From Limnothrix sp. BL-A-16 (GTDB lineage Bacteria > Cyanobacteriota > Cyanobacteriia > CACIAM-69d), in NCBI GenBank assembly GCA_041937175.2, contig CP166615.1:1600001-1664000 (forward strand): a DNA stretch of 64,000 nucleotides. Direction: 5' to 3'. Numbering within the stretch: the first letter of the stretch is position 1; the number at the start of each line of letters is the position of its first letter. The translations under genes were made by a program, and so were the position numbers. Positions 1 to 12,086 of the stretch are shown piece by piece. Under the pieces are notes generated by a model. The model was not told the origin of the DNA. It made no database searches and was given only the letters and a program-made list of their open reading frames with translations.

Positions 1-261
1 AAAATCACGAGGTATAAAAACATAATTGAATCCTAAATTTATGGATGCCAAATTTTTAAATTCGACTGAGAAAGATACAACAAATCTAACAGGAGTTAAT
101 ATTTTTGCCCACGATCAATTAACTGTTGAATGACCTAATCAACAGCTCATCGGCAGCCCGCCCTTGGTCGCCCGACCAATACCCACAGCCCTCGTCCGCT
201 GACGCTGGACAGCGGATTCATTCTGGGGTGTTTCGTGTCATGCTTTTCCGACCGTTCCCGC

Positions 262-501
262 TCAGCCCTCGTCCTCAGCGTCTTTAGGAGCCAGCTCCCC
301 GATCGCCCGGCCCAAATAGGCCTCAACAAAAGCCCGCGCCGCCTTTGGGTTCAACTGCTCTAGGGCATCCACGATCGATGGAATCGATTCCGCTGTTGGG
401 TCGCGCGTTTCTGCGAACCAATGGCTAATAGTGGCGCGATTGATGCCCATCGCCACCGCTAAGCGATTTTGGGCGATGTTGTATTGCTGCAACCGAATCA
501 T
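262..501 (-). CDS. XRE-family helix-turn-helix protein, possibly 5'-truncated
   Basis: QNRLAVAMGINRATISHW HTH plus RDP motif typical of small cyanobacterial XRE proteins; in-frame stop just upstream of the ATG. Confidence 0.7.
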   Translation of the reverse strand: MIRLQQYNIAQNRLAVAMGINRATISHWFAETRDPTAESIPSIVDALEQLNPKAARAFVEAYLGRAIGELAPKDAEDEG

Positions 502-609
502 CCTCGTGGGTCAAAGCGAGTGGGTCGATCGCTTGGTCAAGAGCCGCTACGTAACTGGTGTTTAGCATTATTGTTTTGAAGCTCTCGATTTTTGTACTGC
601 TGGTGCTTA

Positions 610-1059
610 TCAATTAGCTTGCTCTTCTTGAAATGGGCTTGCATACCACTGTAAGTACCATTGTTCTGGATCCTCATCACTGGAACAGTCTTCATACTTT
701 GGAATATGAATCTGGTAAGAATCATGAAAAGACAAGTGAAGACTGTTGTCTTCCAAAAATTCGTACCCTGTAAATATGCTTTGATTTAACGGATGAAATA
801 GATTGCACCACTCTTGAAATCTTAGTCTGTAGTCAATATCTTCATAATGTGGGCACAAGTAGGCATCTGCAATCAGTTCTCCATTCTGCATAAATGACCA
901 AGGTGGGTCAATCCAAATGTAACCTTGCCTTTTTAATTTGTCTTTTTTTTCAAATCTGATTTTGATGGAATTACACGCAATTGAATGGTGACAAGTCTTT
1001 CCAATAAAACCTCTCAAAATCGGTTCATACTTTTGTCGATCACTAGTGATATGGCCCAA
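610..1059 (-). CDS. hypothetical protein (cassette 5 cargo)
   Basis: 149-aa AT-rich ORF downstream (on -) of a GTTGTCC core-like site at 1176-1182. Confidence 0.7.
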   Translation of the reverse strand: MGHITSDRQKYEPILRGFIGKTCHHSIACNSIKIRFEKKDKLKRQGYIWIDPPWSFMQNGELIADAYLCPHYEDIDYRLRFQEWCNLFHPLNQSIFTGYEFLEDNSLHLSFHDSYQIHIPKYEDCSSDEDPEQWYLQWYASPFQEEQAN

Positions 1060-1175
1060 TTTTCCACCTCATTCTCAATACTACAGATGTGCTTTCAACC
1101 TTTAAGCTGAAAGCTATTAACCTTGATCGCTGACAAAGAGTCTATCAAACAAGTTTATAACCTCTTTCTGAAGCA

Positions 1176-1375
1176 GGACAACTATTGATTAAATGATTAG
1201 ATTGCAGTTGCTTGAAAACTCTTTCAGCAGAGTGTTGTTCAGCAGTGGCAAAACAATGTCATCAATTATCATACTTTTGTTGTAACGATCGCCCTGGAAG
1301 CGTCACAGCCCTAACCCAACAGCGCGATCGCCTGTTTCACCAGGTTCTCCGCCGTCAGACCGTTGAGGCCCATCA
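1176..1375 (-). repeat. copy D: 65 bp of phosphoketolase 3' end (1311-1375) plus diverged attI-like spacer
   Basis: Aligns to 8307-8537 (aacgatcgccctggaa.cgtcacagccctaacccaac...; ctttcagcagagtgttg). Confidence 0.9.
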
Positions 1376-1678
1376 AACGTCTTCATCGTAGGCTCTCGCA
1401 ATCGCGGTGTCGAAACGGCTGGCAAACTCGCAGAACTCCTGCCCCCAACCACTGCTCACACTGACCTCCTGGATTGGGCCGGTGGGAAGAAACAAAAGCT
1501 CAATGTCGGAACGCTTGGGTATGTCGCCAGACTCAATGCGAGAAACAATGCTGTCAATCTCTCGAAGTGCTGCCGGTGCATCCTTCCATGAAGACCAATC
1601 AAAGTTGTTGTCGGGCCGCGAGAGGAACTGGCGCGCCTCTCGGAGAACCTCAACCAACTGTTGGTGCTTGGAATTCAT
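1373..1678 (-). CDS. conserved hypothetical protein (cassette 4 cargo)
   Basis: 101-aa ORF with LFLPTGPIQEVSVSSGWG motif; starts 18 nt after a GTTAGGT core site; its stop codon lies in phosphoketolase-derived sequence. Confidence 0.75.
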   Translation of the reverse strand: MNSKHQQLVEVLREARQFLSRPDNNFDWSSWKDAPAALREIDSIVSRIESGDIPKRSDIELLFLPTGPIQEVSVSSGWGQEFCEFASRFDTAIARAYDEDV

Positions 1679-1695
1679 AGAGACGTGCGGATGAC

Positions 1696-2014
1696 ACCTA
1701 ACTATTTATTAGATCGCAGCTGCGGGATGACTCTTTCAGCAGAGCGTTGTCAAGCAGTTGCAGTGTAACTTCAGTATGAAGGGTATTATCCCGCAGTTGC
1801 GAGATAATACCCCCACTTATAGAACTTCTATCGCAACGATCGCCCTGGAAGCGTCACAGCCCTAGCCCAATGGCGCGATCGCCCGTTTCACCAGATTCTC
1901 CGCCGTCAGACCATTGAGGCCCATCAGTTGGCCAGCGGTGGCCGTCGTTTCGCCGCGCTTCCAGGCGAACAGATCGCGCGGGGCCGTGCTACGGAGGGCG
2001 ATCGGCTCCAGCAT
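1696..2014 (-). repeat. copy C: 153 bp of phosphoketolase 3' end (1862-2014) plus full attI-like spacer (1696-1861)
   Basis: Colinear with 8307-8625; translates to MLEPIALRSTAPRDLFAWKRGETT... Confidence 0.95.
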
Positions 2015-2018
2015 GGTG

Positions 2019-2753
2019 TTAGTCGTCGCCATCACGTTCAATCTCACGCTCAATAATCTCTTTGACAAACTCAGGCAGTTCCTTCTCAACACTGACAGCC
2101 CTTTGCTTGAGCCTTTCATAAATCTCAGTGTCATCTCCTTCCCAAAGCAGATCTATTCTTCTGATCTGCCGCATTGCAATATGCTCATAGCTTTCTGGAT
2201 AAGCCCAGTAGCAAGATAGACAAATAGATTTATCCTTAATGCTGTTCCAGTTTTCGCAATGTTCGCATGACCACGACTTGGCCCGGTTAGCTGAGCCACA
2301 AAGTAACATGAAATTTTCTGGGACTAGATCCGGCTCACCAGCAACTTCAAAAGGGACACGATGATCAATTTGTAATTCGCGTTGATTAACCTCTTCAAGA
2401 TAAATAAAGCACCTACATCCATATCTGCTAATCAGTGCCTCTTTAATCTGCTTGGATAAACCTGTTCTGCCAGAAAGGCGAGTGAATCTTGTCTTGCTAA
2501 TATCTCCAAGTCGATATGCAGCTATTTTTCTGCCATCGCTTCCAGTAACACGAAAAGTTTCTAATGGGATACCACTTTCTCTAACATCTCTAGCTGCTCT
2601 TGGAGGATGGTTATAACCGTAAGTTTCTTTTAATTCCTCAGTTGTAATAAATCCGTGTTGCAAGATGTGGTCAATGACTGCTTTCGGTCTCTTTGCTGTT
2701 ACAGAACGGCAAAGTTCCAGGAAGTCATCGGGTAGCTGCTGTGAATTCTCCAT
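2019..2753 (-). CDS. HNH-type Type II restriction endonuclease (SphI/NspI-like)
   Basis: DHRVPF...LCGSANRAK HNH core, CxxC motifs, N-terminal HPPRAARD; overlaps the MTase gene. Confidence 0.75.
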   Translation of the reverse strand: MENSQQLPDDFLELCRSVTAKRPKAVIDHILQHGFITTEELKETYGYNHPPRAARDVRESGIPLETFRVTGSDGRKIAAYRLGDISKTRFTRLSGRTGLSKQIKEALISRYGCRCFIYLEEVNQRELQIDHRVPFEVAGEPDLVPENFMLLCGSANRAKSWSCEHCENWNSIKDKSICLSCYWAYPESYEHIAMRQIRRIDLLWEGDDTEIYERLKQRAVSVEKELPEFVKEIIEREIERDGDD

Positions 2754-3672
2754 GTGTTTCCAAAAGGGTTAGCTGCTTTGGTTGTTGGTCAATATAGCTA
2801 AAATCATAAATTTTAGTGTTCATTAATTTTTTGGATAAACTTGGCGACAAGTACAGCGACTCAATTGTATTTTCCGATTTGCCTAGTAAGGTAGACTGTG
2901 AAGATCTGCCAACTTCGATTTCGATTCTTTCAAGATTTAAGCTATTAGGGAGAAATTTGCCAAACGCCTTATCACCTAATTTTCCGTCATAACTGATAGC
3001 AAATACAGATCCTTTTTGATTTAAGCATTCAAGCGCTAACACAAATTCATCGAAGTCTATCCCAGACAAATATCTTGAATCTCTATTGCCGCATACACCT
3101 TGATATGGAGGATCCATATAGATAAAATCACCTTCTTGAATTTGCTCTAATACCTCTCGGTAATCCAAATTAGTAAATTTACATTTGCTTTTGAGCAAAC
3201 TAGAAACACCGATTATATTTTTTCTCATTGTTTCGGGTCGTGTTCCTTTGCGTCTTTTGTCCGGACTTTGGTTAAACAATCCTTCAGAATTGTAGCGAAC
3301 CGAACCTTTAACGCACCTTGCTAGTAGATAAAGAAGTAGTTTTGGATCGTTGGTCTCATTGAATTTTGATCTGACTTCAAAGTAATGGTCTACAGAATTG
3401 GGGTGTTGTTTATTCCATAGCTCTAAGTAAAAATCGGCTATTTCGTCTGGTTTTTCTACAGCTAGTTCTAGGAGCTTGATGAGCGGATGGTTCAGATCGT
3501 TTAACCAAAAACTCTGGGTGATTTGACTTGCGGACGTAGCAACACTAATTGCAGCAGTTCCAGCAAAAGGCTCTACTAGCCTCTTGAATTTTTTTGGAAA
3601 GAACTGGAGGATGTGCTTTGCTAGCTTCCTTTTGCTGCCTTGATATTGAATGAAGTGGGGTAGGTTTGCCAT
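2725..3672 (-). CDS. Dam (D12)-family DNA adenine methyltransferase
   Basis: YQGSKRKL, EPFAG (motif I), DPPY (motif IV). Confidence 0.92.
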   Translation of the reverse strand: MANLPHFIQYQGSKRKLAKHILQFFPKKFKRLVEPFAGTAAISVATSASQITQSFWLNDLNHPLIKLLELAVEKPDEIADFYLELWNKQHPNSVDHYFEVRSKFNETNDPKLLLYLLARCVKGSVRYNSEGLFNQSPDKRRKGTRPETMRKNIIGVSSLLKSKCKFTNLDYREVLEQIQEGDFIYMDPPYQGVCGNRDSRYLSGIDFDEFVLALECLNQKGSVFAISYDGKLGDKAFGKFLPNSLNLERIEIEVGRSSQSTLLGKSENTIESLYLSPSLSKKLMNTKIYDFSYIDQQPKQLTLLETHGEFTAATR

Positions 3673-3785
3673 CGTTATACAAGGACAAATGATCTTACAG
3701 CGGCTGATTAGGATAGTTCGAGCTTATCGCTTAATTCAAGCATTTTTTCAAGGGCGATCGAAGGGGTGAGGCTGGAGTCTAAGAC

Positions 3786-4019
3786 GACTAACGATTCATT
3801 CGGCTGCAATGATCGCCCGTTGAACCAGGTTCTCAGCCGTCAGACCGTTGAGGCCCATCAGTTGGCCAGTGGTGGCTGTCGTTTCGCCGCGCTTCCAGGC
3901 AAACACATCGCGTGGGGCCGTGCTGCGGAGAACGATCGGCTCCAGCATCGCACTCGTGCCGCCGGTCACGCCCAACAACGCATCACCGCCGAAGAGCCGA
4001 TCGAACGTTGTGCATCATC
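3786..4019 (-). repeat. copy B: about 200 bp of phosphoketolase 3' region (3811-4019) plus a minimal att-like end
   Basis: Aligns to 8488-8694 with 16 substitutions in the first 198 nt (manual count). Confidence 0.95.
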
Positions 4020-4075
4020 CACAGCAAGATAACGGTGTTAGCCTGTCTCAACCAATAGTTTAGTAGAGCAATCCA

Positions 4076-4900
4076 TTAATCTCTTTCCTCATCCTGAAGC
4101 TCTTTTTCGTCTATCTCAACTAGCTCATCAACTACCGAATCTAAAGAAGGTTGATCATCTTCTGAAGGCAATCTGTATTTAGATAAAAAACTCTGAAGCT
4201 TAGGATGCGGTATCCTTTTTAGCTTTCCAAAATTTGTATCCTCGTTAAAATCCTTACCTTCAGATTCCTTGCGACCATATGAATTTGTGTCTAAAGGTAA
4301 ACCTTTTCTGAGTTTTTCTTTCCCGATTTTGCTTAAAACCGTTGGCGTTTCATAATTTCCAAACCATCTTCCACCACGATCAGTCATACGTTTATCTCGT
4401 GCTTCAACAAGCTCAATCATAGAAAAAAGTTCGAGATCAATAATTTGGGGAACTGCTGCATCTGAGTTCAGATCATCTACCTCCATTCGATATGCTATGA
4501 GCAGCATTGCGTCTAACTCCGGATCGACATTTTTGACAGTTACTTTCTGAGTAAGTCGGGCTGATGGCTCTCGTGGTGTAGGCGGCTTTTTCATTTTAAG
4601 ACCAGGATTATCTACATAAAGAAGCTTTAGCTCCAACCTCTTGCCAGATTCATGTTTGTAATCTGGATATCCTTCTCTTTCTCCCAAAATACCTTCATGC
4701 TTTTCAAGCCCAAGTCCTTTTATATCCAAATGAGGAATGAGTGCATCCATCAAGGCACCTACAATTGTGCCTACTTGAGATGGTTCAAATGCGGTAATTG
4801 CTACTATCGGCAGACTTAAGCTCCGAAATTGTTGTCCTATCAAAGGCTTAAGTTGCTCTTTTAGCTTATCCAAGTCATGGTTCGATATGCGACCACTCAT
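4076..4900 (-). CDS. putative PD-(D/E)xK restriction endonuclease
   Basis: YPDY...LELK motif; coupled (ATGA overlap) to an HTH controller gene; next to an MTase. Confidence 0.7.
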   Translation of the reverse strand: MSGRISNHDLDKLKEQLKPLIGQQFRSLSLPIVAITAFEPSQVGTIVGALMDALIPHLDIKGLGLEKHEGILGEREGYPDYKHESGKRLELKLLYVDNPGLKMKKPPTPREPSARLTQKVTVKNVDPELDAMLLIAYRMEVDDLNSDAAVPQIIDLELFSMIELVEARDKRMTDRGGRWFGNYETPTVLSKIGKEKLRKGLPLDTNSYGRKESEGKDFNEDTNFGKLKRIPHPKLQSFLSKYRLPSEDDQPSLDSVVDELVEIDEKELQDEERD

Positions 4901-5157
4901 GTCTCTTTCTCTTCCTTCTGAATTTTTTGTTTTATTTCAGAAGGGAGGACATCTTCTAGATAAAGACCTAAGGCAGCACACCATTTAGCTGCTTCAATTA
5001 CATCAAGCCGTCTTTCACAGGTTTCTACCTTGGAGACCAAGGTTTGCTCTTTACCCAATCTTTCCCCCAACTGTTGCTGAGAAAGATTTTGTCTCTTACG
5101 AGCACGACGAAGGCGAGCAATAAACTCAATGTAGAGAGGGTCACGAGCACCCGACAT
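4897..5157 (-). CDS. XRE-family HTH, RM controller (C) protein-like
   Basis: LSQQQLGERLG...VSKVETCERRLD; immediately upstream of the REase. Confidence 0.8.
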   Translation of the reverse strand: MSGARDPLYIEFIARLRRARKRQNLSQQQLGERLGKEQTLVSKVETCERRLDVIEAAKWCAALGLYLEDVLPSEIKQKIQKEEKET

Positions 5158-5285
5158 AAGGCAGCAAGTATGCGAATTTAGGGTACAAGTTGAAGGTAGA
5201 GGATGCCATCCATTCCTGACCTAAATCGTGCATCTCCTTAGCAAATACCCCAAAAACGCATATTTATAGTTTCCCGACCATCGTC

Positions 5286-5314
5286 TTGACAAATGATCAA
5301 CCCTGCGCGATACT
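5286..5314 (+). promoter_or_regulatory. sigma70-type promoter for the MTase operon
   Basis: TTGACA-N17-GATACT, about 20 nt before RBS aagga and the ATG. Confidence 0.6.
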
Positions 5315-5336
5315 TCGGTTGACTAAAGGAATGAGT

Positions 5337-6629
5337 ATGGCTAAACGACATCAAAATCAACAAGGCAACCTCGAATCGCTGTTTCTTCGCATGGAAGAAC
5401 TTGTTCTTGCAAATTCTGGTGAGGACGAGTTTGAGGAGGTGTTTAAGTTGCTTGTAGCAAAGCTTTGGGATGAACGAAGCCAACAATCTAAATTTTATCG
5501 ATATAGCACTGATGAAGCTACCTTTGAAGCAATAGCCAAACTCATGAGAGAAGCGGAAAAAAAATGGTCGGGAGTTCTCAATGAAGTCACATCCAAACTT
5601 ACGCCTGAGCATCTTTCAATCTGTGTAGATGCTCTTTCAAAACATAACATCTCTAATGAAAGTCTTGATGTTATTGATAGTTTCTTTGAATTTATAGTAT
5701 CCAAGTCGGCAAAGGGAGCTAAAGGTCAATACTTTACTCCAAGGCATGTAGTTGAACTATGTGTAAGAATTTTAAAACCTTCTTCAGGTGAGACAATTCT
5801 TGATCCGGCTTGCGGATCGGGCGGATTTCTCCTCCACGCATTGAAATTTATTAAACAACATGAAAAGTTAGATAGTGGAGGAGAAATTCAAGGCTTTTGT
5901 AGTGAAAAATTATGGGGTTTTGATATTGATGCCAAAGCCACACGAGTTGCTAAGGCTTTAATGATACTTGCAGGAGATGGGAGTAGTAACATTGTCAGGC
6001 TTAATAGCTTATTGAAGCCTGAAATGATTGGGCTTTTTAGAAACACAGAAGAGCCGAATCTTACTATAGAGGATGTATGTCGAAGTCGAATTAAACGTCA
6101 CAAAGGTTTCGACGTTATCCTTACAAATCCTCCCTTTGCTGGTGAGATTAGAGAAAATAGCTTTCTCAATTGTTATAACCTTGCAAATAAAAAATCTCGA
6201 ATTGAAAGGGATATATTATTTGTTGAGAGATGCCTTGAGCTATTAAGACCTGGAGGGCGATTAGCTATAGTCTTGCCTCATAATAAGTTTGCCGGAAAAT
6301 CATTTGAGTTTCTACGACAATGGATTTTGAGGAAAGCAAGAATTCTTGCTGTCATAGGTTTAGGAAGAAATACTTTTATGCCTCATACTCATCAAAAAGC
6401 CAGTATTCTAATATTGAAAAAGCAATCTCCTGGGAAGAGTATCCCGTCAGATTATAATATCTTTTTTGCGATTAGTGAAAAAGATGGCAAGAACTCTAAG
6501 GGGCAGTTTGTTCTGCATGAATCTGTTGCGAGATTAGAAAATACTTGGGAAGATATAGATCATGACTTCTCAGAAATAGTTGAAGGCTTTGAGACATTCT
6601 TAAAACAGGAAAATATTGATTTCGAGTAA
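5337..6629 (+). CDS. HsdM-like N6-adenine DNA methyltransferase (M subunit)
   Basis: GQYFTPR, DPACGSGGFL, NPPF; start taken at the ATG after the RBS. Confidence 0.92.
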   Translation: MAKRHQNQQGNLESLFLRMEELVLANSGEDEFEEVFKLLVAKLWDERSQQSKFYRYSTDEATFEAIAKLMREAEKKWSGVLNEVTSKLTPEHLSICVDALSKHNISNESLDVIDSFFEFIVSKSAKGAKGQYFTPRHVVELCVRILKPSSGETILDPACGSGGFLLHALKFIKQHEKLDSGGEIQGFCSEKLWGFDIDAKATRVAKALMILAGDGSSNIVRLNSLLKPEMIGLFRNTEEPNLTIEDVCRSRIKRHKGFDVILTNPPFAGEIRENSFLNCYNLANKKSRIERDILFVERCLELLRPGGRLAIVLPHNKFAGKSFEFLRQWILRKARILAVIGLGRNTFMPHTHQKASILILKKQSPGKSIPSDYNIFFAISEKDGKNSKGQFVLHESVARLENTWEDIDHDFSEIVEGFETFLKQENIDFE

Positions 6630-6634
6630 CAAAT

Positions 6635-7294
6635 ATGGCTTTGATTTCGATTCAGTCAAAAACTCGTCTTGTGTCACCAGTAATTCTTGCTCCCGAAAGA
6701 TACGATCCAAGACGGAAAATCAAGACGCAAGAAAACGAAGTAGTTGAGCTAGGTGAAATCGTTATTTCCGTAAAGAAGATGGTTAAATCCTCTGTTAATC
6801 TTGGAAAATGTTTTGTTCTTGATACTTCTGACGCTCGAGAAGGCATTGTAATTGCCAGAAAGCAATCGCTGCAAGGCACTGAAATTGGTAGCACCAAGAA
6901 GGAGGTCAAATCTGGGGATGTTATTATCTCACGTCTTAGACCATATCTACGACAAGTAGCATTTATTGATGAAGAGATACCTAATGCTAATGGTACTCAG
7001 ATTCTTTGCTCTACGGAATTCTTTGTCTTACGCTCAATTGATAATCTATCGATAGCATTTTTGGTACCTTTTTTACTTTCAAACGCAATTCAGGAAGTAC
7101 TCGCAGCATCCCAAGAAGGTGGGCATTATCCTAGATTTATCGAATCGGCTCTTCTAACACTTCCTATACCCAAAAGCCTCTTATCCCAACGCTCACTGAT
7201 CTCTGAAGTTGTCAGAAATAGTGTTCAAATGTACAGAGCTTCTGAGAAATCGATGTCAAACATGGTCGAAAAGATTAACGCTACGCTGTCTTAA
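6635..7294 (+). CDS. single-TRD specificity (HsdS-like half) subunit
   Basis: GDVIISRLRPYL...CSTEFFVL motifs; 219 aa; directly after M. Confidence 0.8.
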   Translation: MALISIQSKTRLVSPVILAPERYDPRRKIKTQENEVVELGEIVISVKKMVKSSVNLGKCFVLDTSDAREGIVIARKQSLQGTEIGSTKKEVKSGDVIISRLRPYLRQVAFIDEEIPNANGTQILCSTEFFVLRSIDNLSIAFLVPFLLSNAIQEVLAASQEGGHYPRFIESALLTLPIPKSLLSQRSLISEVVRNSVQMYRASEKSMSNMVEKINATLS

Positions 7295-7350
7295 GATTTT
7301 TCTCATGAAATTTTAGATTTGCGGAGGGCAGCAAGACCTAGACTTTTGCA

Positions 7351-7436
7351 GGCTAACGTTCCTGGTCAGCGGTTGCCGATACCTTGTCCACTCCACAAGC
7401 AACTTGGGGCAATCCGCTGCACCAGGGTTGTTGTGC
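7351..7436 (-). other. attC-like recombination site (86 bp)
   Basis: On -: R'' GCACAAC, arm cctggtGcagcggAttgcc / ggcaaccgctgaccagg with two extrahelical bases, R' GTTAGCC. Confidence 0.85.
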
Positions 7437-8313
7437 TGCGTGCTGAACTATTCATTATTTACTTTAGGTTCTGAAGGTTTTGGTTCTCGCAACTTATTCT
7501 TAACTTGATTGTTAGAATTATTTAGAAAATCAGATTCTATACCAGCAGAACTCCTTTCAATCAGGTTTGTAATAAGCTTATCCATAAGTTGTAGGTTTTT
7601 CTCTGGATCTTTAACTTGCTTACAAAGCTCAACAGCTAGCATTGTGTCTTGAATTCTAGTCAGTTGCTTATAGAATCGATTAGATTGCTCAACTGTCCGG
7701 TTATAAAGAACAAAGTTAGCACCTCCTATGAATTGAAGAATTATTCCAGAAATGCCAGATATAATCGACAACTCAAGCTTTTGTCCTTCTTTAATAAAAG
7801 GTAGCAATATTGCTATAACTACAGTAATAAATCCTAAAAATATGACTAATGCGCTGAAGCTAAAGCTACGTCTTGCTTGATTTTTGTTAATTGTATAGTA
7901 CTCGGTAATCTGATTTAAATTTAACCTTATAACATCTACAACACTATCTTCTCTTTCAATTCTTTCAATAATCTTTTCTCTTTCTTGCTTTATTGCTTTT
8001 ACTTCGATTGTTTCTGAGATTGCTGATTTGGATAAACTAAAAGGATTATTGGACAGGAGAAAAAACACAACAATTACAGTAAGAGGCAGTGTAGGAATAC
8101 CCAGGAAATTCCCAACCCACGCGACTAGAGCCGCCGTTATGAAATTAGCGGGGATCTCAGTCATCATTACTTGTGTCCATGCTTCTTTAAAGCTACTGGC
8201 TCTTTTTCTCATAATGAATTTCCGTAGGCGTTGTATTTGGGAAAAGTTGCTAATACCTTAGCAAAAGAGCATAGCTTTTGATACTCCCCCAACCAATAAC
8301 TCAGCAGCACAAC
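7357..8313 (-). mobile_element. integron-like gene cassette 1
   Basis: gcagcacaac (8304-8313) and gttgtgctgc (7430-7439) are a perfect 10-bp inverted pair; full attC follows the ORF. Confidence 0.85.
7448..8212 (-). CDS. membrane protein with a TRADD-N-associated 2-TM-like domain
   Basis: EYYTINKNQARRSF + TM + ISGII.QFIGG.NF.LY pattern; additional N-terminal TM segments. Confidence 0.6.
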   Translation of the reverse strand: MRKRASSFKEAWTQVMMTEIPANFITAALVAWVGNFLGIPTLPLTVIVVFFLLSNNPFSLSKSAISETIEVKAIKQEREKIIERIEREDSVVDVIRLNLNQITEYYTINKNQARRSFSFSALVIFLGFITVVIAILLPFIKEGQKLELSIISGISGIILQFIGGANFVLYNRTVEQSNRFYKQLTRIQDTMLAVELCKQVKDPEKNLQLMDKLITNLIERSSAGIESDFLNNSNNQVKNKLREPKPSEPKVNNE

Positions 8314-8472
8314 TATGTATTAGACCGCAAGTGCAGGATAACTCCTTCAGCAGAGTGTTATCAAGCAGCTACAGTCTAACTCCAGTCCAAAGGGTACTAC
8401 CCCGCAGTTGCAGGATAATACCCCCACCTATAGAACTTCTACCGCAACGATCGCCCTGGAATCGTCACAGCC
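8307..8472 (-). other. attI-like spacer between the phosphoketolase stop and the first cassette (copy A)
   Basis: Ends in a GTT core; internal palindrome at 8392-8423; homologous to 1696-1861 and 1176-1310. Confidence 0.6.
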
Positions 8473-10686
8473 CTAACCCAACAGCGCGATCGCCCGTTTC
8501 ACCAGGTTCTCCGCCGTCAGACCGTTCAGGCCCATCAGTTGGCCAGCGGTCGCCGTCGTTTCGCCGCGCTTCCAGGCAAACACATCGCGCGGAGCCGTGC
8601 TGCGCAGGACGATCGGCTCCAGCATCGCACTCGTACCGCCGGTCACACCCAACAATGCATCACCACCAAAGAGCCGATCGAACGTCGCATCATCAATAAA
8701 GTGAGCATCCGGCTCCGAGCACATCTCCACCGCCACATCGGTCGATCGGTAGAGGCGACGGGGGCTAATCACCGACACGATCCGCGAACCGATCCCCTGG
8801 GCCGCCAACTGTTCGGCGGCCGCCAGCGCCGGGGTCAAGGTCATGTCACCAATCACCGCCAAGACCACGGTTTTTTCGCCGGGCGTTTCTTGCAACACAA
8901 AGCCGCCGTCCTGCAAGGCTTGGCGCGTTTGCTCAAAGGTCGAGACGATCGGCAGCGGCGACTTGCTGACCGTAATCGTGATCCCCTTGTTCACTTGCGC
9001 CAGCGCCCAGTCATAGCAAGCCTGGGTGCTGTTCGCATCGCAGGGGAACAGCGGGAAGATGTTGCCGTTGCGCATCATCGCCGCGAAGTAGTTTTCGATT
9101 TCCGGGCGTTGGTGCGTCCAGCCGTTGCGGCCCTGCTCCAGCGCACCCGCCGTGAACAGGCAGACCGTGGCGGGCGTGGGGCGGCGCAACTCGGCCATGG
9201 CTTGGGTGACGGTTTGCCAAATCGGCAGACCGTTGATCGCGAACGACTCGTAGGAACACCAGAGCGATCGCGCCCCAAACAGGGCTTGCCCCACCGCCAA
9301 CCCGGCGCAGGCATCCTCGTTCAGGGGTTCATACACCTGACCATCGGGCTGTTGGAAATAGATGGGGTCGGTGGTCGGGTGAACGATTTTCAGGCCCACA
9401 TTGATGTTGTTGATCCCCGAGGCGGCGTTGCCGTCGGCGTTGGTGACGATGAAGTCGCGATCGGCTTGACCCACTTGCACCACCACATCGCCCATGGCCG
9501 TGGTCGAAACCTTCTTTTCGCCGGCCGGGAATTCCACCAGGTTCAGCTTGCCCAAATCCGCTAGGGGCCGCACCTTTTCGGTCACGGCCACCTGAGCCGC
9601 CGGGCCACCGCCCGATCGCTCAAAGTTCGTCCGCACCAGTTGCCAAGCCTCCGGCGACAGGGCCCGCTCCTTCAGGGCCGCCACAATGTAGTCCCGCTCC
9701 AGGTTGTCGCCGGGATAGAGGTTGTGGGACTGAGCACCGCGCTTGTGTACGCCCGCGCCCTTCAGTTGCTTGATGATCAACACCGTCAGCTTGCCGCCCA
9801 AGGCCAGTTTCGCCGCCTGGTCGGTGGCTTCCAGCACTGCCTGGGCAAACACCAATCGCTGGGCAAAGGAAAACTGGGTGCTATCGACGTAATCGCCCGG
9901 TTGGTTGGCATCGTCGAAGTCCTTGGCATCCAGCAGCACCACTTCTTCAAAGCCATTGCCGCGCCAGTAGGCTTCCATGGCGGCGTTGGATTTGGTGGAG
10001 ACCATGCTGTGGTGCTCTTGGCTGTAGCCGTTCCAAATCAGAATCGGCAGGAAGTTGGTGGCCTGCGGATAGGCGGTGTTGAAGTGGCCAAAGCTGCTCA
10101 TGATGTAGGGTTCGCCCAGGCCGCCATCCCCGATCGTCACGGGGAAGAGGGTTCCGGGGAACAGCTTGGCCCCGGCCATGGCAAAGTGCTGACCCTGGCC
10201 GAGGGGGCCGGCGGGGGCCAGCAGGCCGGGAATTTGCCCCGACAGGTGGCCGAGCAGGCCGTGGGTTTCGCGGAATCGATCGCGCAATTGCTGCACCGTC
10301 GTGATGCCCATGGCTTCGAGCGATCGATCCAAGAACACCTGGGAATAGAAACCGGGGGCGTGGTGGCCCACTTCGGTGGTGAAGTTCTTGTAACCGAGCA
10401 TGATCAGCGCCGCCATCACATCGGCAGAGCTGGCATAGCCGCCGGGGTGGCCCGATTCCTTGCTGGCGGTCATCTGCACGATCAGGTAACGCAGGGCATC
10501 GGCCGCCAGGAGAGTTTGGAAGGCCGCCGCTCGATCGCTCGGGCTGGCGATCGCCCCTGTGGTCGCATCCACGGCTGGCGCAGCACCCAGGATGTCAAAT
10601 TCGGGCCAAGGCGCACCGAAGTATTGAATGCCGTCGCAAAACGCAGGCGTGGTCGTGGGTGCGGGGGTTGTGGCGGTCATGGGCAA
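8473..10686 (-). CDS. xfp: phosphoketolase/transketolase-family ThDP enzyme
   Basis: SGHPGG, GDGG...N ThDP motif, NGWTHQRP. Confidence 0.85.
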   Translation of the reverse strand: MPMTATTPAPTTTPAFCDGIQYFGAPWPEFDILGAAPAVDATTGAIASPSDRAAAFQTLLAADALRYLIVQMTASKESGHPGGYASSADVMAALIMLGYKNFTTEVGHHAPGFYSQVFLDRSLEAMGITTVQQLRDRFRETHGLLGHLSGQIPGLLAPAGPLGQGQHFAMAGAKLFPGTLFPVTIGDGGLGEPYIMSSFGHFNTAYPQATNFLPILIWNGYSQEHHSMVSTKSNAAMEAYWRGNGFEEVVLLDAKDFDDANQPGDYVDSTQFSFAQRLVFAQAVLEATDQAAKLALGGKLTVLIIKQLKGAGVHKRGAQSHNLYPGDNLERDYIVAALKERALSPEAWQLVRTNFERSGGGPAAQVAVTEKVRPLADLGKLNLVEFPAGEKKVSTTAMGDVVVQVGQADRDFIVTNADGNAASGINNINVGLKIVHPTTDPIYFQQPDGQVYEPLNEDACAGLAVGQALFGARSLWCSYESFAINGLPIWQTVTQAMAELRRPTPATVCLFTAGALEQGRNGWTHQRPEIENYFAAMMRNGNIFPLFPCDANSTQACYDWALAQVNKGITITVSKSPLPIVSTFEQTRQALQDGGFVLQETPGEKTVVLAVIGDMTLTPALAAAEQLAAQGIGSRIVSVISPRRLYRSTDVAVEMCSEPDAHFIDDATFDRLFGGDALLGVTGGTSAMLEPIVLRSTAPRDVFAWKRGETTATAGQLMGLNGLTAENLVKRAIALLG

Positions 10687-10962
10687 TTCACCTAGTGGTT
10701 CGACTCTCTCGACTGTAAGGCCAGTCTTGAGGCGATATTTTACAACCTTGATGTTGCTAAAGTCTCAGGACGATCAACTCAGGACGATCGAAACCGGCCC
10801 CTTAACGACCCGTTGTACTGGGGGCTGGACGATCAGCAGGCGATCGATTGTGGCAGTCTCTCGCTAAATTTGCCGCCCTAGTCCAGACCCAAAACGCCAC
10901 GCCCTAACCCATCAACCCTGTTGATAGACTGGGGGCAATTCCCCGATCGAAACTGGTCGCCT

Positions 10963-11508
10963 ATGTTGACCCTGGCGCAATGGACCGTGGCGGAATATCA
11001 CCAAATGATCGCGGCGGGCCTGCTGGTCGATCGCCGCGTGGAACTGTTGAACGGGCAAATTATTGAAATGTCACCGGAAGGGCCGGAGCATACCTATCGC
11101 GGCGAAACCCTGGCGGAGTGGCTGCGCGATCGCCTGCGGGGGCGAGCCTATGTGCGGGAAGCGCGACCGATTACCCTAGACCATTCGGAACCGGAGCCAG
11201 ATATTGCCGTGGTGCGGGGCGATCGATCCCAATTTGTCCAACGACATCCCGGCGCGGCGGATCTGTTTTGGGTGGTGGAAATTGCCCGATCGACCCTAGC
11301 CACAGACCTGACCCACAAGCGGGATCTCTACGCGCGGGTGGGAATTCCGGAATATTGGGTGGTGGATTTGGTGAATCGGCGGGTGGTGGTGTTTCGGCAA
11401 CCGGAAGCGGGCCGCTACAGCCAAGCGGAAACGGTGAGCGATCGCCCGATCGCGCCGCTGGCTTTCCCGGACTGTGCGATCGACCTGACCCAGCTCTTTC
11501 AACCGTAG
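10963..11508 (+). CDS. Uma2-family (DUF820) endonuclease-like protein
   Basis: RVELLNGQIIEMSP, PEPD, K..LYA..GIPEYWVVD. Confidence 0.92.
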   Translation: MLTLAQWTVAEYHQMIAAGLLVDRRVELLNGQIIEMSPEGPEHTYRGETLAEWLRDRLRGRAYVREARPITLDHSEPEPDIAVVRGDRSQFVQRHPGAADLFWVVEIARSTLATDLTHKRDLYARVGIPEYWVVDLVNRRVVVFRQPEAGRYSQAETVSDRPIAPLAFPDCAIDLTQLFQP

Positions 11509-11540
11509 AGTCTGCCGCGTGACGACGCGACAACGCAATT

Positions 11541-12086
11541 ATGTTGACCCTGGCGCAATGGACTGTGGCGGAATATCACCAAATGATTGCGGCGGGCCTG
11601 TTGGTCGATCGCCGCGTGGAACTGTTGAACGGGCAAATTATTGAAATGTCACCGGAAGGGCCAGAACACCGCTACCAATGCAGCAGTTTGGGCGATCGGC
11701 TGCGGGTGCTGTTGCGCGATCAGGCTTGGATTAGTGAGGCACACCCGATTACGCTGGATGACTCGGAACCGGAGCCGGATTTGGCCATTGTTCGGTTGCC
11801 TCGATCGGCCTTTCGCGATCGCCACCCGGGGCCAGCGGATCTGTTTTGGGTGATTGAAATTGCTCGATCGACCCTCACCACAGACCTGACCCACAAGCGG
11901 GATCTCTACGCGCGGGTGGGAATTCCGGAATATTGGGTGGTGGATTTGGTGAACCGGCGGGTGGTGGTGTTTCGGCAACCGGAAGCGGGCCGCTACAGCC
12001 AAGCGGAAACGGTGAGCGATCGCCCGATCGCGCCGCTGGCCTTCCCGGACTGTGCGATCGACCTGGCCCAGCTCTTTCAACCGTAG
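11541..12086 (+). CDS. Uma2-family endonuclease-like protein (tandem paralog)
   Basis: Same motifs and same length as the upstream copy. Confidence 0.92.
   Translation: MLTLAQWTVAEYHQMIAAGLLVDRRVELLNGQIIEMSPEGPEHRYQCSSLGDRLRVLLRDQAWISEAHPITLDDSEPEPDLAIVRLPRSAFRDRHPGPADLFWVIEIARSTLTTDLTHKRDLYARVGIPEYWVVDLVNRRVVVFRQPEAGRYSQAETVSDRPIAPLAFPDCAIDLAQLFQP

Follow-up and report, generated by a model that had tools for sequence, protein, structure and literature searches.

An integron cassette array without an integrase gene in Limnothrix sp. BL-A-16, built on repeats of the 3′ end of a host gene

A single attC site without an integrase is termed a SALIN. [quoted passage not shown] (2016, PMC4889954), which, in its accessible text, also reports integrons in Cyanobacteria, calls cassette clusters in integrase-less genomes surprising and lists possible origins for them. 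Cyanobacteria are likewise listed among integron hosts in the accessible part of PMC8618304. Among described ways in which arrays change, again as given in the accessible portions of the papers, cassette arrays of In104 in Salmonella genomic island 1 are exchanged or lost by homologous recombination (PMC7056807), those of Acinetobacter can be exchanged by transformation in an integrase-independent, RecA-dependent manner (Domingues et al. 2012, PMC3410848), and transformation-driven cassette recruitment in Vibrio requires the integrase (PMC12614218). Here we describe a cassette array in the complete genome of the cyanobacterium Limnothrix sp. BL-A-16 (G000; 4.56 Mb, 55% GC), where five cassettes in four modules rest on repeats of the 3′ end of xfp, a gene of the phosphoketolase family. 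On balance we favour the view that an integrase whose gene (intI) is now missing loaded these cassettes, and that homologous recombination at the xfp repeats, hereafter called tails, swaps and stacks modules between strains.

The window is the 64,000-nucleotide stretch C1:1600001-1664000 of this genome that was analysed as a whole, and its coordinates are used below unless stated otherwise. Positions 500-8300 form an AT-rich island (GC 0.37-0.50) directly behind the resident xfp (8473..10686, minus strand; 737 amino acids, GC 0.63), whose product matches the Pfam families XFP and XFP_N and falls below the cut-off of the NCBIfam phosphoketolase model. This gene anchors the array, which is read along the minus strand starting at xfp. 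The order is xfp, attI copy 1, cassette 1, an attC, cassette 2, a collapsed attC and a leader, followed by xfp tail 1, an attC remnant, cassette 3, xfp tail 2 and attI copy 2, and then by cassette 4, xfp tail 3, a decayed attI copy 3 and cassette 5. Each of the four modules starts with an xfp 3′ end, and three of them also with an attI. An Rfam scan of positions 1-11000 returned no match at E ≤ 1.

The first-pass annotation of this stretch had proposed three consecutive cassettes with exactly complementary ends, inserted at G/TT. The pairs are indeed exact reverse complements, none of which can be extended: 8304-8313 with 7430-7439 for cassette 1 (10 bp), 7349-7357 with 4037-4045 for cassette 2 (9 bp) and 3783-3792 with 2018-2027 for cassette 3 (10 bp). 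Between positions 500 and 8330 there are 6979 GTT...AAC pairs spaced 300-5000 bp apart, eight of which are complementary over at least 9 bp and two over 10 bp. The cassette ends account for three of the eight, including both 10-bp pairs, and five other 9-bp pairs exist; a 9-bp pair alone is not rare in this island, and it is therefore context, not pairing alone, that establishes the three. As also proposed, the stop codon of the HNH open reading frame (2019-2753, minus strand) falls inside the inverse core GACTAAC. The expectation that homologous genes would be flanked by attC elsewhere was borne out in genome G023, which has a full integrase and where the first base of the cassette 3 counterpart coincides with the G/TT in a full attC (57.5 bits; 87.5% identity over 1193 bp).

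Contigs from independent sequencing runs cross the junctions (X1 over 464-3840, X11 over 423-4034), and four lake metagenomes contain identical junction letters, so that the junctions are not an assembly artefact. The window segments are almost certainly integron gene cassettes. Of the earlier reading, integron origin and insertion at G/TT stand; however, cassettes 2 and 3 lack a foldable attC, and the entry site is an attI rather than an attC. Moreover, only cassettes 1 and 2 abut, whereas cassettes 2 and 3 are separated by about 245 bp (3790-4033) that comprise a collapsed attC remnant and an xfp 3′-end copy with its 10-bp leader.

To score attC sites we used a model (R1) built from nine sites of about 86 bp that lie beside full integrase genes of other cyanobacteria; the training sites were chosen through a preliminary attC scan and two longer sites were omitted. 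Six of the 13 base pairs in R1 covary with changes on both sides. The only complete attC of the array, an 86-bp site at 7351..7436 (minus strand), scores 66 bits (E = 2.1e-13), folds on its bottom strand with a z score of -2.65 and matches the first attC in the integron of G024 at 81% identity over 83 bp. R1 gave no second match at E ≤ 1 over the whole 64-kb window, leaving cassettes 2-5 without a foldable attC. Folding of the other proposed junctions also failed to appear, with 3780-3900, 3930-4050 and 1920-2030 performing no better than shuffles (z of 0.8, -1.5 and -1.1). The attC of cassette 2 has collapsed to an inverse core, three bases and a core (4027..4045, minus strand), and run X11 carries a full attC arm at this position. 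A second collapsed site, recognized by eye as the attC remnant of a lost cassette (3786..3813, minus strand), supplies the G/TT of cassette 3 and recurs in the related genome G002 and in the lake metagenomes. Because cassettes 2 and 3 lack foldable sites, excision by IntI1 should, as judged from sequence, work for cassette 1 only. Elsewhere in the genome, a lone decayed attC (25.7 bits) lies behind an AT-rich gene at C1:3694946-3695034.

The entry site of the array is very probably an orphan attI at 8311..8472 (minus strand), which lies directly behind xfp with its core G/TT at 8313/8312. Positions 8311-8324 are identical to the last 14 bases of the attI that accompanies a full intI in G014, and by eye an A-rich box followed by GTT closes eight of nine stretches that lie upstream of full intI genes. 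The element aligns to the DNA that abuts a 38-codon intI 5′ remnant in G003 with a score of 68.5, compared with at most 39 in 500 shuffles, and in G512 an intI fragment adjoins a relative of it. Pc-like boxes at 8364-8335, whose -35 and -10 elements agree at 9 of 12 positions, point into the array and are conserved as promoter-like boxes in 12 aligned attI copies. By sequence, the element joins a predicted site to a predicted cassette promoter. On the other strand, 8456-8473 may represent an intI stub of a few codons, which is weak here and clear in G003; orphan attI copies in other cyanobacteria (L040, L039, L056, L087 and L092) begin with a stub of 6-13 codons and share a recurring truncation point. 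A reversed or damaged attC at 8311-8472 was also considered and is ruled out by the match to intI-adjacent DNA.

Two further copies of the attI lie deeper in the array. Copy 2 (1700..1861, minus strand; core G/TT at 1702/1701) is full length, is 85.6% identical to copy 1 over 160 bp and folds (z of -3.1) through internal palindromes. Copy 3 (1180..1311, minus strand; core G/TT at 1182/1181) is decayed and aligns to copy 1 with gaps, in BLAST pieces of 78-96% identity. An attI-like end is found behind xfp in four of 20 xfp loci, all four in the family of this genome, and the element is absent from this position in the 16 other cyanobacteria. A genome scan with the attI end yielded six records, two of them Limnothrix redekei, one of which has an xfp-attI array. 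The attI family occurs in at least five of 300 genomes of the class, a lower bound given that two candidates were scored per genome, and no carrier was present among the plasmids or the viral contigs searched. A further attI-like end lies at C1:3786930 of the Limnothrix genome.

Integron integrases reportedly also insert cassettes outside att sites, and one could ask whether ordinary chromosomal DNA simply received the cassettes at secondary GTT (attG) sites, the 160-bp element being no attI at all. The G/TT before cassette 3 does lie outside any attI. However, the affinities of the element to attI ends beside full intI genes and to the intI 5′ remnants of G003 and G512, its recurrence at unrelated loci with a cassette starting at the same G/TT, and its absence behind xfp in 16 other cyanobacteria make this explanation barely credible.

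No integron integrase was found in the complete genome, in which the best TIGR02249 score is 57 bits against a cut-off of 265. The family PF00589 identifies one gene, a XerC-like tyrosine recombinase 40 kb from the array that is the sole one found in the genome (47960-48724, minus strand; 317-residue frame). Its candidacy as the integron integrase was rejected on sequence grounds, given the same 57 versus 265 bits and genes of equal score in all 14 control genomes. None of seven family relatives (one of them 72% complete) passes the TIGR02249 cut-off, compared with 12 of 23 other cyanobacteria; the integrase remnant in G003 is a stub of 38 residues only, and in the four lake metagenomes no intI stands beside attI among the matches listed. 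The cyanobacterial plasmid NZ_CP083584.1 carries intI, and supply of an integrase in trans is therefore possible. The enzyme that loaded the cassettes has likely since been lost or was supplied from outside.

Copies of the xfp 3′ end recur through the array. Tail 1 (3811..4023, minus strand) covers gene positions of about -230 to -16, ends in GCGATC and has lost its attI. It is 91% identical to the resident gene, with 15 silent and two non-silent changes in 207 bases plus a 2-bp insertion. Tail 2 (1862..2016, minus strand) runs from -155 to the stop codon and is 91% identical to the resident and 92.9% identical to the xfp of both G001 and G002, with 10 silent and three non-silent changes. Tail 3 (1312..1375, minus strand) comprises the last 64 bases of the gene at 96.9% identity to the resident.

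If these repeats had been duplicated in place and had then evolved neutrally, about 48% of the changes should be silent. Four tails were compared with the resident xfp of their own genomes, with the 64-base tail 3 and three decayed tails of G002 left out. Silent changes make up 15 of 17 and 10 of 13 in tails 1 and 2 of the window and six of seven and eight of 10 in tails of relatives (p = 0.0006, 0.04, 0.04 and 0.05 at a kappa of 4). When the two window tails are compared with each other, nine of 13 differences are silent (p = 0.005), and about 31% would be expected for copies of one dead fragment; nine of the 10 pairs among five tails give p < 0.05. The excess of silent changes therefore suggests that each tail was recently the working xfp end of another lineage, which is what a staggered double crossover, pairing a donor tail with the recipient gene end, predicts. 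The xfp genes of three congeners are themselves mosaic, this genome and G002 differing at 5 to 26 positions per 221 bases. Concerted evolution of tails with the resident gene was rejected, since none of the four tails is closest to the xfp of its own genome.

A constant leader (4020..4033, minus strand) begins with G/TT and runs into tail 1. The same or nearly the same leader follows four attC sites in G002, and its 12 opening bases also occur after an attI elsewhere in that genome (G002:C47), so the leader is likely the start of an old cassette. In a different way to build the array, the block of leader, tail and attI would itself be a cassette with an attI in place of its attC, excised by a visiting or former IntI through attC × attI recombination and put back at attI or attC sites, with homologous recombination only patching the tails later. 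The unit boundaries fit such a block, as every tail of G002 begins with G/TT directly after an attC-like site, and a source of intI exists on the plasmid mentioned above. Cassettes of the attI type are excised and inserted by IntI1 (accessible text of PMC12901181). A 2-bp insertion common to four of five tails that reach the leader also speaks for a mobile block, but X1 and X11 lack it. Furthermore, copies of a dead fragment should differ at random, yet these tails differ mainly at silent sites; if cassettes were inserted at an attI in front of a fixed leader, the same succession of attC and leader would arise without moving the block; and a second array in this genome (see below) was stacked through a join at a GCGATCGC sequence, not at G/TT. 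We regard the mobile block as rather unlikely.

The chromosome carries 5209 GCGATCGC (HIP1) sites, and HIP1 was considered, but not adopted, as the recombination site of the system. Five of 21 automatically called fragment ends fall on CGATCG (8% expected, p = 0.026) and six of 21 lie within three bases of it (p = 0.038), which we retain as a weak hint only; seven of the 21 end points come from the noisy alignment of the decayed attI copy 3. Deletion between HIP1 sites and HIP1-aided transformation have been reported (accessible text of PMC13756078). The block of xfp tail plus attI has also moved to two unrelated loci, L036:14580-14900 (G002:C90) and L038:8260-8450 (G003:C9), where they are joined at CGATCG and head cassettes.

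Comparison with close relatives shows that the array varies at a defined place. This genome, G001, G002 and G003 all have the attI behind xfp, and the first cassette, joined at the same G/TT throughout, differs in every one. In G002 there are four tails, all of them preceded by an attC-like site and by this leader; R1 matches two of these sites strongly and one weakly (E = 0.075), and the fourth was recognized by eye. G002 also has part of cassette 3, at 94% identity, and cassettes 4 and 5, at 97 and 86%, and by sequence the window array reads as a G002-type array shortened by deletions. The simplest donor form is seen in G001, with one cassette and one tail. The first cassette of G001 (L034:2560-3290) is GC-rich (57%) and, by eye, appears to hold a roadblock/MglB-type gene acquired from a non-cyanobacterial donor. 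Runs X1 and X11, from two studies, yielded contigs that are about 97-98% alike and span both 464-4034 and xfp. Between 4034 and 8347, X1 contains a different sequence of 2122 letters, and in X11 the leader runs into an attC arm; leader and tail thus behave as a constant right-hand border to a slot whose content varies. The lake metagenomes contain the module junctions together with further first-cassette starts.

These strain differences bear on whether the array might be a frozen relic, assembled under its own intI, with repeats that are old tandem duplications, with no additions at present and with differences among strains produced by sorting and loss of old alleles. Cassettes 3, 4 and 5 and their junctions are common to G002 at 86-97% identity, and most att sites have collapsed, as a relic would have it. 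Integrase loss has frozen arrays in Xanthomonas (accessible text of bioRxiv 10.1101/2025.06.18.660453). However, strains 97-98% alike differ in all content between attI and leader, and four related genomes hold four different first cassettes. In addition, tail 1 has accumulated two non-silent changes against 15 silent ones in 207 bases, from which its loss of function appears recent relative to the split of the alleles. A frozen relic is accordingly quite improbable.

Under the favoured reading of recombination at xfp tails, an integrase, lost or supplied from outside, would have inserted cassettes at the attI behind xfp. One early join at a microhomology may have placed the opening 10-12 bases of an old cassette ahead of an xfp tail, and leader and tail would then have become a fixed right-hand segment, such that cassettes entering at the attI were followed by attC, leader and tail. 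This order after cassettes is observed in G002 and run X11. Incoming DNA with the arrangement xfp - attI - new cassette - attC - leader - tail could cross over once in the body of xfp, while the other crossover would join the incoming tail with the xfp end resident in the recipient. What had been the gene end there would become a new tail and the recipient's old cassettes would shift one module down, so that a module is added and none is replaced. If the second crossover fell in the matching tail, replacement would follow instead, as is seen as an outcome in X1 and X11. Collapse by short deletions, observed as an outcome in the older attC and attI sites, would fix the cassettes in place. The genome encodes the competence proteins ComEC and DprA.

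Several observations weigh against this account. Three of the four comparisons with resident genes are borderline, with p values of 0.02-0.06 across kappa values of 2-8 and small counts, and the ten tail pairs share sequences and are not independent. The silent excess indicates an origin as working alleles and not that modules were added in the same event, as later patching would give an equal signal. The first three tails of G002, those nearest its xfp, are more decayed, with 8-10 non-silent changes, and show no clear age gradient, and the 2-bp insertion has the distribution described above. Competence of the organism is deduced from two genes, and none of the recombination events themselves has been observed. 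The strain data consist of contigs, with the foreign insert known from 30 letters only, and exact, strain-variable G/TT junctions require an integrase, none of which was located. Integron origin meets objections of its own: the gene of cassette 1 has no homologue at E 1e-15 among 250 other genomes, the putative endonuclease of cassette 2 shows a cassette signature in none of three distant homologous loci, and a strong attC match was obtained at just one of 15 homologous loci and, for cassette 3, in one of 11 homologous genomes.

A more far-reaching proposal, on whose truth we are nearly evenly divided and lean slightly to doubt, is that the locus acts as an integrase-free ratchet for gene capture, in which, as soon as a core gene's 3′ end has been copied behind the cassettes, any transformation with a neighbour's allele can add a module of attI plus cassette while resident modules are kept. 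If so, gene ends formerly in use by the recipient would lie between modules as dated fossils, and from the tails one could read in what order, and from which donors, defence genes were acquired. Such a ratchet would give integrons a general second life in naturally transformable lineages that have lost intI.

Integron cassettes are said to be stores of defence systems, and the cargo of this array is predicted from sequence to include two restriction-modification systems and to be partly anti-phage. Cassette 1 (7357..8312, minus strand; GC 0.35) carries a single gene (7448-8212) for a membrane protein of 254 amino acids that matches the Pfam family CyanoTRADDas_TM (E = 2e-16). Cassette 2 (4034..7356, minus strand) contains a predicted four-gene restriction-modification system, composed of a type I-like N6 methyltransferase (5286-6629, plus strand; Pfam N6_Mtase, PADLOC MTase), a half-size specificity subunit (6635-7294, plus strand; PADLOC Specificity), a control-type helix-turn-helix (HTH) protein (4897-5157, minus strand; Pfam HTH_3, PADLOC Control_protein) and a putative endonuclease (4076-4900, minus strand) with a weak match to PADLOC REase_II (E = 2.5e-4). 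The last protein, of 274 amino acids, has 1158 homologues, none of them named. We presume a likeness to AhdI-type systems, in which a type I-like methyltransferase, a half-size specificity subunit and a control protein accompany a separate endonuclease; the assignment of the endonuclease in cassette 2 is weak.

Cassette 3 (2018..3791, minus strand), of whose attC only the inverse core is left, encodes a predicted type II restriction-modification pair. A Dam-family methyltransferase (2725-3672; Pfam D12, TIGR00571 above its cut-off) stands beside the HNH endonuclease (2019-2753, minus strand; PADLOC REase_II, E = 3e-58), both in open frames. Methyltransferase and endonuclease stand together in cassette 2 likewise, with the endonuclease match being weak. 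Homologues of the HNH gene are present in 11 of 400 other genomes, and the inverse-core letters recur at the end of the gene in eight of 11 homologous loci. In runs X1, X9, X11 and X12 the methyltransferase gene shows, at 3023-3027, a one-base deletion and a one-base insertion three bases apart that keep the frame. Relative to the G023 copy, the ends of cassette 3 carry paired changes, C to T in the core (3783-3792) and G to A in the inverse core (2018-2027), a pattern that hints that the cassette at some later time passed through a folded attC.

The two remaining cassettes are small. Cassette 4 (1376..1701, minus strand), whose attC is deleted, holds a gene for 101 amino acids (1373-1678) with no Pfam, NCBIfam or PADLOC match; it is 96.7% identical to its counterpart in G002, where an attC-like site and the leader come next. 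Cassette 5 (544..1181, minus strand; GC 0.365) holds a gene for 149 amino acids of no known family (610-1059), is 86% identical to its counterpart in G002 and has an attC-like left arm (544-567) recognized by eye only.

Additional features were observed around the array and elsewhere in the chromosome. At the far edge of the island lies a gene for an HTH protein of 79 amino acids (262-501, minus strand), which has three tandem paralogues at C1:1889936-1890615, the last of them truncated. Upstream of xfp, 10921-12086 (plus strand) contains two tandem, nearly identical Uma2 genes (putative restriction endonucleases), at which the X1 and X11 contigs loop back 539 bases. A second integrase-less array, at C1:3430700-3437200, has a site of the attI family and at least five attC sites by eye, three of which were matched by R1, one of them strongly; relatives hold other cassettes there. 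This second array is doubled, with both intergenic flanks repeated and joined at a GCGATCGC sequence.

The locus shows that integrase-less arrays can retain a whole attI and still differ from one close strain to another, and it suggests a testable route for array growth without an integrase. The two predicted restriction-modification systems are relevant to phage defence and to the transformation of these cyanobacteria. No description of the arrangement of xfp tails and attI was found in a full-text literature search, which excludes most subscription journals and supplements.

Compared with a complete integron, the array lacks an intI next to its attI. Compared with the class 1 platform of intI1, conserved segments and transposon, there is no intI in the genome and no such genes are among the open reading frames of the window. 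With CALIN, taken as defined in the accessible text of PMC4889954, it shares cassettes with attC in a genome without intI. Unlike a CALIN, it has one whole attC by R1, which places it below the two-attC rule, it rests on repeated copies of the end of a host gene, and it has retained, in three copies, an attI bearing promoter-like boxes, a site for which that survey could not search. Tools that demand two attC sites would overlook such arrays. The unusual cassettes in the accessible part of PMC12901181 resemble cassettes 2 and 3 in having truncated attC sites with the inverse core left, and also include attI within arrays. However, those cassettes carry short pieces of attI1 or attI2 (in one case a whole attI1) directly behind the gene and belong to mobile integrons that bear an integrase, whereas here a whole intI-to-attI spacer stands behind a host gene fragment.

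The exchanges in Acinetobacter, as presented in the accessible text of PMC3410848, likewise involve crossovers in conserved segments that flank a variable region, and they fit the swaps seen in X1 and X11. The transformants reported there all replaced the array and none added to it, whereas the staggered tail at xfp would permit addition. In104, in the accessible text of PMC7056807, also has several attI sites (two), each with its own cassettes, and duplicated segments. It differs in having intI1, a transposon inside a mobilisable island and repeats of integron DNA; in the window it is a core metabolic gene whose end is repeated, and the repeats resemble former working alleles of other lineages. 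The present locus adds evidence on how the stacking of attI modules works. In its workings the array resembles both In104 and a CALIN in which the attI has been retained.

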